Assembly (NCBI GenBank): GCA_963719085.1
Contig: CAVRAL010000001.1
Location: 1,024,001 to 1,088,000 of the forward strand
DNA length: 64,000 nucleotides
DNA from: a candidate division FCPU426 bacterium
Lineage (GTDB): Bacteria; Oederibacteriota; Muellerivitia; Muellerivitales; Muellerivitaceae
Direction: 5' to 3'
Position 1 is the stretch's first letter. Every line of letters starts with the position of its first letter. Shown here in pieces: positions 483 through 12,979 of this stretch. Made by a program: the position numbers and the translations under genes. Below the pieces are notes generated by a model, which was not told the DNA's origin, did not search any database, and saw only the letters and a program-made list of their open reading frames with translations.

Positions 483-659
483 TCAGCCGTTCTCGTCCTT
501 CACCAACCGGATCCGCTCAATCTTGTCGATCTGCGTGATCCGGGAATTATGGACGGTGATTTGCACCGTCCCATAACGCATCCCCTTGATCGCCGCCAAT
601 ATTTTTTGGACCAGTTGAACTTGTTCTTCTTCCGTCAAAAGCTCGTTCTTCGCCGACAT
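483..659 (-). CDS. yezD: YezD/DUF2292 (OscA-like) small protein, 58 aa
   Basis: Manual translation MSAKNELLTEEEQVQLVQKILAAIKGMRYGTVQITVHNSRITQIDKIERIRLVKDENG; xRYGxVxIxVHxxRITQI motif; below ORF-track cutoff. Confidence 0.85.
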   Translation of the reverse strand: MSAKNELLTEEEQVQLVQKILAAIKGMRYGTVQITVHNSRITQIDKIERIRLVKDENG

Positions 660-3215: not shown

Positions 3216-3794
3216 TCAATTCAGCTGGAACAAAATCGGAAGCGTCACTTCACAGGCCACCGGCGCGCCGTTCGCGTCGCAAGCCGGGGTGAAAATGCCG
3301 GCCTTGACCTTTCGGATCGCGAATTCATTCAAAACCTCGTAAGTTCCCTTCAGCAGCCGAACCTCCTGAACCAGCCCCTGGGCGTCAATGTGGAGCAGAA
3401 GCACCACCCGGCCGTCGCTGCCCGACTGGCGGGCCACCGAGGGATAATCGTCCGGATCAATCAAATTCCCCACCCAACGGGGCTTGCGAGAGGTCTGCGA
3501 TTCGGGCACCCAAACCGTCTGCGATTGGACCGGTTCCAGATGTACTTTTTCCGGAACGACTTTCTCGGCGGCCTGGTGCCCTTTTTTCGGCAAGGTCCAT
3601 TTAAAAGGCGGCTGGGTCACAACCGGGTTCATTTCCAGGTCCGTGATGACGACCGAGCGATGCGCGAAAAACAACAGGTACAAGATCAAGAACAAAGCCG
3701 TGTGGACCAAAATGGAAAGGCTAGTTCCCGCCGCCAAGGGCTCTCCCCAGAACTGCGCGAAACCGGCTTTATTTGTCAGAGACAAGTGCGACAT
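3216..3794 (-). CDS. tonB: Energy transducer TonB
   Basis: TM with SxxxH motif (SILVH); C-terminal YPSVAR...GRVVLLLHIDAQG domain. Confidence 0.9.
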   Translation of the reverse strand: MSHLSLTNKAGFAQFWGEPLAAGTSLSILVHTALFLILYLLFFAHRSVVITDLEMNPVVTQPPFKWTLPKKGHQAAEKVVPEKVHLEPVQSQTVWVPESQTSRKPRWVGNLIDPDDYPSVARQSGSDGRVVLLLHIDAQGLVQEVRLLKGTYEVLNEFAIRKVKAGIFTPACDANGAPVACEVTLPILFQLN

Positions 3795-4170
3795 GGTCGA
3801 CCCCCGCTTGTTTAATCACATCTAAAGCCGACACCACCTGCTGGTAAGGCAATCTACTGTCCGCCGCCAGCGTGATTCGAACCCCCGGATTTTCCGCCAC
3901 CTCCTGGGCCAGCGCGGTCTTCAGTGCAGCCAAGTCCGTCTTGTCTTTTCTCAAGTAAACTTGGCCCTTGTCGTCGATGGAAACAGAAAGGGTCGGAGCC
4001 GCCGGACTGTCCCCCGTTTCGGTTTTCGGCAAATTGATCTTGAGGCTCGCCTCCGACACGAAAGTTCCCGCCACCATGAAAATAATCAAAAGTACCAGCA
4101 TGATGTCCACCATCGGGGTGACATTGATGCCGGTCACCGTGCCATCTTCTTCGATATAATTTGAGCTCAT
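3769..4170 (-). CDS. exbD: Biopolymer transporter ExbD/TolR
   Basis: INVTPMVDIMLVLLIIFMV motif. Confidence 0.95.
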   Translation of the reverse strand: MSSNYIEEDGTVTGINVTPMVDIMLVLLIIFMVAGTFVSEASLKINLPKTETGDSPAAPTLSVSIDDKGQVYLRKDKTDLAALKTALAQEVAENPGVRITLAADSRLPYQQVVSALDVIKQAGVDHVALVSDK

Positions 4171-4225: not shown

Positions 4226-4915
4226 TCAAGAAACGGCCGCCGGATGCCGTCCCTCCACTTTTTGCTGGCTCTTGATGGCGCGGCGCAAAAGTCCCTCACT
4301 CTCATCCCGGAGATAAACCTGAAGCAGATGGATCAGGCTTTGGGTATTCGCGATCTTTTTGCGCAAACTGGTTTGGAAAACGTTGTTGGCCACCACCGCC
4401 GGAATCGCCACGAAAATCCCGAAGGCTGTGGCGATGAGCGCCGAGGAAATGCCCGCCATCACCACCGAAACTCCGGAGTTGCCGCTGACCGCCAGGTCAT
4501 TGAAAGCCTTGATGATTCCCAGCACTGTCCCCAAAAGTCCGACAAAGGGGGCGTTGTTGCCCAGGGTTCCCAAGATGATGAGGTGTTTTTCCAACCGGTT
4601 TCGCTCAAGCACCAGGCGGGAAGTCATGGCCTCTTCCACCGAAGCGTAGCCCTTATGCAGATGGGTCAATCCCGCCAAGGCCACATGGGCTTCCACACCG
4701 GAAGCTTTTTTCACCGTTTCTTTCGCTCCGTTTAAATTCCCCTTTTCGAGGAAATCCGAAAGCTTGTCCAAAAGCTGGGAGAAATCCACCGCGCTGGCCT
4801 TAAATACCCGCCAACGCTCAAAAATCACACCCAAGGAAAGCACGCTGGCGGCCACCAGCGTCCACAAGGCCCAAACATCCCCGGCCAAAGCCAGTTTTTT
4901 GAATAGTTCCGTCAT
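4226..4915 (-). CDS. exbB: MotA/TolQ/ExbB proton channel
   Basis: APFVGLLGTVLGII and ALIATAFGIFVAIPA motifs; start moved to ATG behind AGGAG. Confidence 0.95.
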   Translation of the reverse strand: MTELFKKLALAGDVWALWTLVAASVLSLGVIFERWRVFKASAVDFSQLLDKLSDFLEKGNLNGAKETVKKASGVEAHVALAGLTHLHKGYASVEEAMTSRLVLERNRLEKHLIILGTLGNNAPFVGLLGTVLGIIKAFNDLAVSGNSGVSVVMAGISSALIATAFGIFVAIPAVVANNVFQTSLRKKIANTQSLIHLLQVYLRDESEGLLRRAIKSQQKVEGRHPAAVS

Positions 4916-4961: not shown

Positions 4962-4994
4962 AAAAAACCCGAACCGCTTTCAAACGGTTCGGGT
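4962..4994 (-). terminator. Intrinsic terminator of riboswitch unit 3
   Basis: ACCCGAACCG-loop-CGGTTCGGGT followed by T-run on minus strand. Confidence 0.85.
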
Positions 4995-5017
4995 CATGAA
5001 ATAAATCATTGCCTTCA

Positions 5018-5104
5018 AACCGCTTTAGTTCCCGATTCGCCCAAGGGTTGAAACCTCAAACCTTGGAGCCGGCTGGGGGCAAGTTGGTACTTAAATCCCG
5101 CCGT
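5018..5104 (-). ncRNA. SAM-II-like aptamer, copy 3 (most downstream)
   Basis: CGGCGGG-ATTT-AAGTACCAAC-TTGC-CCCCAGCCG-hairpin-GGAACTAAAGCGGT. Confidence 0.65.
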
Positions 5105-5117
5105 AAAAATAATCCGT

Positions 5118-5163
5118 AAAAAAAAAATCCCAAAACCACTTCTTGTTGAAGCGGGTTGGGATT
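5118..5163 (-). terminator. Intrinsic terminator of riboswitch unit 2
   Basis: AATCCCAA-CCCGCTTC-loop-GAAGTGG-TTTTGGGATT followed by a long T-run. Confidence 0.75.
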
Positions 5164-5185
5164 CCGGATCGTCCGATAATCTTGT

Positions 5186-5258
5186 TCCGCTTTAGCGCCC
5201 TGTTTATCCCCTCTCGGGGGATACGGCCGGGGCAAGTAGGTCAACAAAGCCTCGCCGG
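5186..5258 (-). ncRNA. SAM-II-like aptamer, copy 2
   Basis: CGGCGAGG-CTTT-GTTGACCTAC-TTGC-CCCGGCCG-hairpin-GGGCGCTAAAGCGGA. Confidence 0.65.
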
Positions 5259-5359
5259 TGTTCCAATCCTCCCAAAATTCATCAGCCGGAGGTTGAAACC
5301 ACACCCGCTTCGATTCGGAGCGGGAAAAAGCTTAAATTTAAGGGTTTTTCGCCATAAAC

Positions 5360-5395
5360 AAAAAACCCGGGCCGCTTTAAAAGCGGTCCGGGTTT
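5360..5395 (-). terminator. Intrinsic terminator of riboswitch unit 1
   Basis: AAACCCGGACCGCTTT-T-AAAGCGGCCCGGGTTTTTT. Confidence 0.85.
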
Positions 5396-5421
5396 AGGGA
5401 TTACTCTCTAACTCGTTCGAC

Positions 5422-5488
5422 ACCGCTTTAGCTCACTGTTCGACCCGAAGGTCACGCCGGAGCAAGTTGGAACTTAAAGCCCGCGCTT
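5422..5488 (-). ncRNA. SAM-II-like aptamer, copy 1 (promoter-proximal)
   Basis: GCGCGGG-CTTT-AAGTTCCAAC-TTGC-TCCGGCGT-GACC(TTCG)GGTC-GAACAGTGAGCTAAAGCGGT. Confidence 0.65.
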
Positions 5489-5499
5489 GATGCTTTTGA

Positions 5500-5528
5500 A
5501 ATTTATTTCAATCGACGAAAAATGTCAA
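5500..5528 (-). promoter_or_regulatory. Sigma70-type promoter for the riboswitch leader/exbB operon
   Basis: TTGACA-17 nt-TAAATT immediately before aptamer 1. Confidence 0.7.
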
Positions 5529-12858: not shown

Positions 12859-12979
12859 CTCTCATCGACCCCGGCCTAAAGCCGGAGCAGGAATTGGCAC
12901 CTAGCAATTCCCCCCCTACGGGGGAAATCCGGTTGCCGTGGTTTCATAGGGCCTGTCCCTCCACCACTCTGGATAAGAG
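12859..12979 (-). ncRNA. SAM-I (S-box) riboswitch
   Basis: CTCTTATCCAGAG-TGGTGGAGGGACAGGCCCTATGAAACCAC-GGCAACC...GGTGCCAATTCC...GATGAGAG. Confidence 0.97.

Follow-up and report, generated by a model that had tools for sequence, protein, structure and literature searches.

Tandem SAM-II/V-like pseudoknots with their own terminators ahead of a TonB uptake operon, and their relatives at sulfur genes of the same family

The window, a 64,000-nucleotide stretch of DNA from a candidate division FCPU426 bacterium, carries on its minus strand an exbB leader bounded by a thiF/moeB gene on one side and by exbB on the other. The leader holds three aptamer-like units, all on the minus strand, and each is laid out as an aptamer, a 26-30 nt spacer, a GC-rich hairpin and a U tract, with the tracts ending near 5360, 5118 and 4962. 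The genes behind it (exbB, exbD, tonB, a receptor gene, a DUF2292 gene and three arylsulfotransferase genes, all three of the last matching PF05935/PF14269) lie on one strand with short gaps and are presumably co-transcribed. Judging by domain names, the likely job of the operon is the uptake and desulfation of sulfate esters. For the receptor, none of the NCBIfam subfamilies searched matched at cut-off. The features are as follows.

5500..5528, minus strand: sigma-70-type promoter, TTGACA-17-TAAATT, 10 of 12 matches, transcription probably starting near 5493
5423..5486, minus strand: aptamer 1, subtype B, with P1 GCGC/GCGU, extension UCC and P3 GACC-UUCG-GGUC; 67.5 bits with covariance model R1 (in its training set)
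5360..5392, minus strand: terminator 1, stem 5392-5366, -18.0 kcal/mol; antiterminator strand CCGCUUU at 5386-5380
about 5187..5257, minus strand: aptamer 2, subtype A, with P1 CGGC/GCCG and extension CCC; R1 74.5 bits (in training set)
5118..5160, minus strand: terminator 2, stem 5160-5129, -15.0 kcal/mol; CCGCUU at 5154-5149
about 5020..5103, minus strand: aptamer 3, subtype A, with a long P3; R1 58.4 bits (in training set)
4962..4993, minus strand: terminator 3, stem 4993-4968, -17.9 kcal/mol; CCGUUU at 4987-4982
4226..4915, minus strand: exbB/tolQ family gene, PF01618; ATG at 4915, AAGGAG at 4928-4923
3769..4170, minus strand: exbD, PF02472
3216..3794, minus strand: tonB, PF03544
693..3203, minus strand: TonB-dependent receptor, true start probably later than 3203
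483..659, minus strand: small DUF2292 gene, PF10055, 59 bits
1..480, minus strand: 5' part of the first of the three adjacent arylsulfotransferase genes, the remainder lying beyond the window (L017 12123-16481)
12859..12979, minus strand: SAM-I riboswitch, RF00162, 83.6 bits, the only one in the genome and outside the array
L017 7593-8150 and 11642-11903 (G000 C1, about 1015600-1019900), minus strand: a second triple and a double of the same element

A preliminary description of this leader had proposed three aptamer copies ahead of exbB, and a strict pattern searched over the 3.04-Mb genome recovers exactly these and one paralogue (4 sites; none in the reversed-genome control). It had also given each copy its own terminator, which the stem energies and U tracts above bear out; a simple terminator scanner called only terminator 3 of the three. 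The CCGYUU motif that it noted in the terminator 5' arms, complementary to the AAGCGG at the aptamer 3' end, is seen in all three units. The promoter that it placed before copy 1 is present, and the scan that called it found 3 promoter-like sites, against 0.6 in shuffles.

Across its relatives, the element is marked by a covarying P1 of 4-5 bp, a P2 longer by about three pairs, a longer loop 1 and a hairpin in loop 3. P1 reaches at least 4 bp in 131 of 148 units under a fixed-register parse. In 86 aligned units its covariation score is 0.189, compared with 0.090+/-0.006 when shuffled and at most 0.069 when slid, and the pair types include CG41/AU32/GU4/UA2 and GC49/CG34; the covariation to which the preliminary description had looked is therefore present in P1. 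The distal CC/GG pairs of the pseudoknot (P2a) are complementary in 86/86 units without any variation and hence give no covariation signal. The pocket is nearly invariant, with UUG in 149/149 model hits and CUAAA and GG in 148/149, figures that are partly circular because the initial members were selected by pattern. Where the pocket edge does vary, the first U of loop 1 becomes G in 11 of 149 hits and the G before CUAAA becomes A in 10 of 149. Aptamer 3 of the window has this A and one additional base before the P1 3' strand; a genome of the same genus has the consensus bases where this unit deviates. The U-to-G change reads GAGGCGUU in eight cases, with first units of L115, L116, L118, L119, L111 and L130 showing it, and it often falls in the first unit of a double that heads metY or DUF2292. 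Downstream of P1, 141 of 148 units have a P3 hairpin, the two bases of the AA after P3 are conserved in 146 and 147 of 149, and about two dozen units carry inserts of 35-130 nt after UUU.

Loop 1 has the form G(A)GG[C/A]UUU, lengthened to match the extension of P2, in which CCC, UCC, CUC or ACC pairs with GGG, G-GA, GAG or GGU preceding GCUAAA, usually with one bulge. Four Watson-Crick extension pairs can be drawn in 138 of 148 units if one bulge is allowed, a permissive parse that has no control, and an extension U stands opposite A in 27 of 29 cases. A fixed-column count gives no two-sided change in the three extension pairs because the position of the bulge shifts. What seems the clearest support for a lengthened P2 comes from distant members (20-34 bits), which read CAA/UUG, CGC/GCG or CGG/CUG, two of them swapping the first pair from C-G to G-C. 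The preliminary description was right to see a pseudoknot here and mistaken about one partner, for the C run that follows UUGC has as its partner the GGG ahead of GCUAAA and not the 5' GG. A longer, SAM-II-like P1 that joins the loop-1 GG to the C run occurs in ligand-free folds and was rejected, as it fails in the CAA members; such a pairing is a possible unbound state.

The closest known core is that of SAM_alpha (RF00521). The segments CCAACUUGC ... GCUAAAGCGG agree base for base with its consensus CCGGCUUGC ... GCUAAAgAGG, and P1, the UUU loop, CCNNCUUGC, P1' and GCUAAAGNGG follow in the same register, so that the SAM-II-type order proposed earlier holds in both register and pocket bases. 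Terminator platforms and a metY, metH and metK context are shared as well. RF00521 differs in having a P1 of 6 bp rather than 4-5 bp, two bases ('Ag') between UUGC and P1', with an extension of one pair, where the present units have 3-4 that pair with the 3' strand, and 3 rather than 4-5 bases of loop 1 before UUU; the loop 3 hairpin is a further difference. Plain Rfam SAM-II membership, as the preliminary description would have had it confirmed by a cmscan-type search, is contradicted by the silence of all three models. The leader units do not match RF00521 at E 10, and 0/31 family genomes rise above its gathering threshold (36 bits); SAM-V (RF01826, threshold 41 bits) has 0 matches at E 10 in the genome itself, and SAM-II long loops (RF01726, threshold 44 bits) has none. 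Nor did any SAM-II/V match come from scanning the window, its leader, one member that lacks the hairpin and three distant members.

Likenesses to SAM-V were taken from the description in the available text of PMC6061858, not from example sequences, and include a 4-bp P1, a P2 continuous with P1, a P3 hairpin followed by an A stack, and extra pairs at the lower end of P2. In that account SAM-V is translational and marine; its platform at the ribosome site is absent from the three window units, which have terminators instead, and the extension here is one or two pairs longer and usually bulged, on a core that is SAM_alpha-like. The SAM contacts listed there (U9, U20, U47, A48, A50 and the 3' CC/GG helix) all have counterparts in these units. 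A pattern scan of viral sequences for SAM-V examples gave 117 stretches, of which 19 were scanned with Rfam and none matched. SAM-II long loops (RF01726) share a longer purine-rich loop 1, a P1 of 4-5 bp and optional loop 3 inserts, whereas in the part of the supplement 5 alignment compared (part 37 of 282; PMC2864571) the rows have UUGC(A/G)A right before P1', an A-rich loop 3 ending in AUGCUAAA and no 3-bp extension.

Comparison of sequences thus supports P1, P2, its lengthening, P3, the terminators and the antiterminator complementarity. On this footing the element is a structural variant of SAM-II/V and not a plain member of Rfam SAM-II, and the units are probably SAM-binding H-type pseudoknots from the SAM-II/SAM-V clan, each with a longer lower P2 and an intrinsic terminator. 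New here are the extended fold, the SAM-II triples, a family-wide regulon and the fixed order of two subtypes; the mechanism and the tandem logic are known already. A literature search, with most subscription papers outside its range, found no description of the variant, and curated riboswitch sets outside Rfam may hold some members.

The array is not the one-off that the preliminary description implied. A first pattern matched 25 of 30 genomes of the same family and 2 of 30 others, and its reversed form gave zero in 60 of 61 genomes. R1 was built from 86 of 91 short-loop candidates; three long-insert units that had been parsed wrongly and two hits that looked like chance were left out. This model, which answers to the covariance search named earlier, matches 28 of 30 family genomes, the one genome of the same order (1/1) and 6 of 67 others of the phylum, as well as 8 of 151 in a second phylum, where one match looks spurious. 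Among named records, strong hits bear the labels Elusimicrobia, Acidobacteria, Ca. Desantisbacteria and Ca. Firestonebacteria; 25 such loci were scored with R1, giving 16 above 60 bits, 3 weak and 6 none, and the nine weak or unscored loci were taken as chance. Of 15 viral loci, 4 were inspected, and one of these fits the element.

This genome itself has nine copies. Besides the window triple there are a second triple (two of its units with inserts of 54 and 102 nt) that heads a porin gene, sbp and cysTWA, a double that heads a small ORF, a family 2A encapsulin and its cysteine desulfurase, and a single that heads a peroxiredoxin gene; the second triple and the double lie at most 14 kb from the window array. 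An HPr-family gene sits at L017 4373-4795 (-), between sbp and cysT of the sulfate transport operon. With units less than 420 nt apart counted as one array, and tiny intervening ORFs not each checked, the 149 units of the loci studied form 93 arrays: 47 singles, 36 doubles and 10 triples, the last spread over 9 genomes. Counts of units and arrays are not independent because the members share descent.

Terminator-like hairpins follow 129 of 148 units, compared with 193 of 1500 random windows, and CCGY is found in the 5' arm of 121/129 of these, against 44/193 in controls. Several of the 19 units that lack a terminator call have CCGC hairpins with poor U tracts. Folding can be used to follow the competition between the two states: in RNA that stops short of the terminator 3' arm, the final five bases of the aptamer find downstream partners with a probability of 0.94-1.0 in all three units, and in the full-length minimum-energy fold the terminator is kept in all three, so read-through must be kinetic, during transcription. 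Folds, energies and the CCGY count together back the three terminator/antiterminator units proposed earlier, and the arrangement is consistent with the OFF logic. At low SAM, the free AAAGCGG at the aptamer 3' end would capture the emerging terminator 5' arm and the polymerase would continue; with SAM bound, the triplex and CC/GG pairs would hold AAAGCGG and the terminator would form. The statement that SAM-II usually controls translation is at odds with the available parts of two papers, which describe it as mostly transcriptional (PMC6061858 and PMC2258182), with metX a rare translational case (PMC6061858). In some of the distant members the element closes with AGAGG or AUAGG just upstream of a start codon, only a few bases away (that of metK in L282 and of metY in L160), and these do look translational. 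A more distant group (L282 1198-1258 (-), L300 259-317 (-), L338 1193-1252 (+), L388 and L414 896-947 (+)) has a 3-bp extension without a bulge that ends in GCUAAAGAGG at a ribosome site; its genes are metK in L282 and elsewhere unassigned or HTH genes, one of them on a viral contig.

Our best reading, which we hold with good confidence, is that these are SAM-off transcription switches. The sulfur link is backed by the gene context of the 93 arrays, whose first genes include metY (12), porin (24), sbp (4), DsrE (4) and one each of cysK, cysD and a sulfite reductase-like gene, and by metK, metH and metY in distant members. Taken together, the downstream genes cover sulfate uptake, metY, cysD, cysK, peroxiredoxin and the desulfurase encapsulin, and genes found behind distant members include metK, metH (3) and a SAM hydroxide adenosyltransferase. 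According to the available text of PMC8049743, Synechococcus induces its desulfurase encapsulin when starved of sulfate. A sulfur marker gene lies downstream in 61 of 93 arrays, and in 49 of 57 where at least 4 kb of DNA was covered, a count without background in which the markers were chosen from the same neighbourhoods and nested arrays are counted twice. Against SAM stand the uptake or cysteine-side nature of most family targets, seven first genes without a family (in Acidobacteria-labelled and other loci), the units whose pocket edge varies, the presence of SAM-I as well in 26 of 30 family genomes and the lack of metY in this genome. The SAM-I of the window heads an operon of thrC-like, moaD-like, NIL, thiF-like and cysK genes, whose make-up suggests a sulfur-carrier route to homocysteine or cysteine.

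With three such switches in series, the checkpoints would multiply, and therefore the TonB uptake and arylsulfotransferase genes would stay near silent until SAM, as a proxy for sulfur supply, drops well below the midpoint of a single switch; the same element would control much of the family's sulfur-acquisition genes. If the read-through of each unit is assumed to run from 0.9 to 0.1, a model gives a 9-fold range, a midpoint of 1.0 Kd and a Hill slope of 1.0 for a single unit, 80-fold, 0.48 Kd and 1.13 for two, and 710-fold, 0.30 Kd and 1.22 for three. Tripling would thus gain depth of repression and a lower threshold with little steepness, and the steep response once suggested gives way to a modelled slope of 1.22 and a wider range. 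That SAM-II usually occurs singly, as had been stated, is not supported either: the available text of PMC9481103 counts 44 doublets of SAM-II, in some of which each switch has its own terminator, and 2 cases of SAM-I/IV followed by SAM-II. The present arrays resemble these tandem pseudo-cooperative riboswitches in repeating complete switches with their own terminators, and in L300 the element directly follows a SAM-I/IV switch and its terminator (in L338 it lies 500 nt after one). They differ in that the triples in that text are of SAM-I (1), c-di-GMP, glycine, guanine, Moco and FMN, with SAM-II as doublets only.

The arrays also have an internal order. Subtype B, defined by a P1' of GCG, comes first in 41 of the 46 doubles and triples and subtype A fills 55 of 56 later positions; a hexamer resembling TTGAC lies ahead of 37 of the 41 B units in first position, against 6 of the 55 later A units. 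In this genome the three arrays begin with near-identical units, and two of the second units also closely match each other, so the leaders appear to have been copied as cassettes. Descent alone may explain the B-then-A order, a more interesting cause being that the subtypes differ in affinity. CysB-type proteins run such sulfur regulons elsewhere. A bolder proposal, which we consider rather doubtful, makes the extended-P2 pseudoknot a third structural class of its own within the SAM-II/V clan, one whose triple helix is longer; B and A would differ in affinity or ligand, and the arrays would be ordered threshold or two-input devices replacing a protein sulfur-starvation regulator across the family.

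The almost fixed order of subtypes can also be read another way: with the same fold and terminators, some or all units might sense a SAM relative or other sulfur metabolite (SAH, decarboxylated SAM or a cysteine-pathway compound), and B and A might differ so as to form a two-input gate. The pocket variants fit this, as do targets in sulfate uptake and scavenging while a separate SAM-I serves the synthesis operon, and a spermidine-sensing variant of SAM-I appears in the available text of PMC10853860. However, no SAM-contact base is lost in B or in A, and this holds also for the two uridines by which SAM-V prefers the sulfonium to SAH (available text of PMC6061858); what separates the subtypes is mainly P1 and the extension. 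Copying of whole leaders could account for their order, and the metK, metH and metY context points to SAM itself. We therefore regard another ligand as unlikely.

A protein antiterminator or other trans factor binding the repeats, with the SAM-II likeness a relic, would suit the unusually high identity between distant lineages and the failure of Rfam models to find the units. Yet the invariant bases are those of a small-molecule pocket, the translational versions overlap the Shine-Dalgarno sequence before metK and metY, no regulator gene lies beside the arrays in the neighbourhoods examined, and the genome's one LysR-type gene adjoins a leuC-like gene and not the sulfur cluster; we give this very little weight. 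The deviations of unit 3 from a consensus that its same-genus counterpart keeps, and a SAM-independent terminator after the SAM-II switch of S. meliloti metA (available text of PMC9373788), could mean that a single unit works and the others are decayed copies or constitutive attenuators. The covarying P1, pocket and antiterminator strand of all three units speak against this, as does the share of doubles and triples (46 of 93 arrays), and such decay is less probable still.

If the preferred reading of SAM-off switches holds, sulfate uptake, organosulfur scavenging, peroxiredoxin and the desulfurase encapsulin would come under RNA control, and this shared control suggests a likely sulfur role for a TonB receptor, a porin and small uncharacterised genes. 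About 150 unannotated switches would be added in a lineage for which libraries list only a single SAM-I in each genome, and present counts of SAM-II/V riboswitches and of tandem arrays would therefore be too low. The arrays also offer a natural series (1, 2 or 3 units; short to long P2) in which the gain from stacking, and triplex length against affinity, can be tested.

Small ORFs without a Pfam match lie right behind double arrays at L017 11295-11552 (-), L143 9195-9626 (-), L113, L104 and L102; they include an 86-aa ORF before the encapsulin and a 105-145 aa family in four genomes. In L052, L067 and L070 (Acidobacteria-labelled), the switch precedes a protein of 90-99 aa, also without a Pfam match. 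Four switches are spread along one apparent operon at L104 12137-14441 and L113 10798-13120, in the order double, ORF, single, DsrE gene, single and exbB. At L353 968-1405, a double and a single on opposite strands form divergent arrays in one intergenic region.
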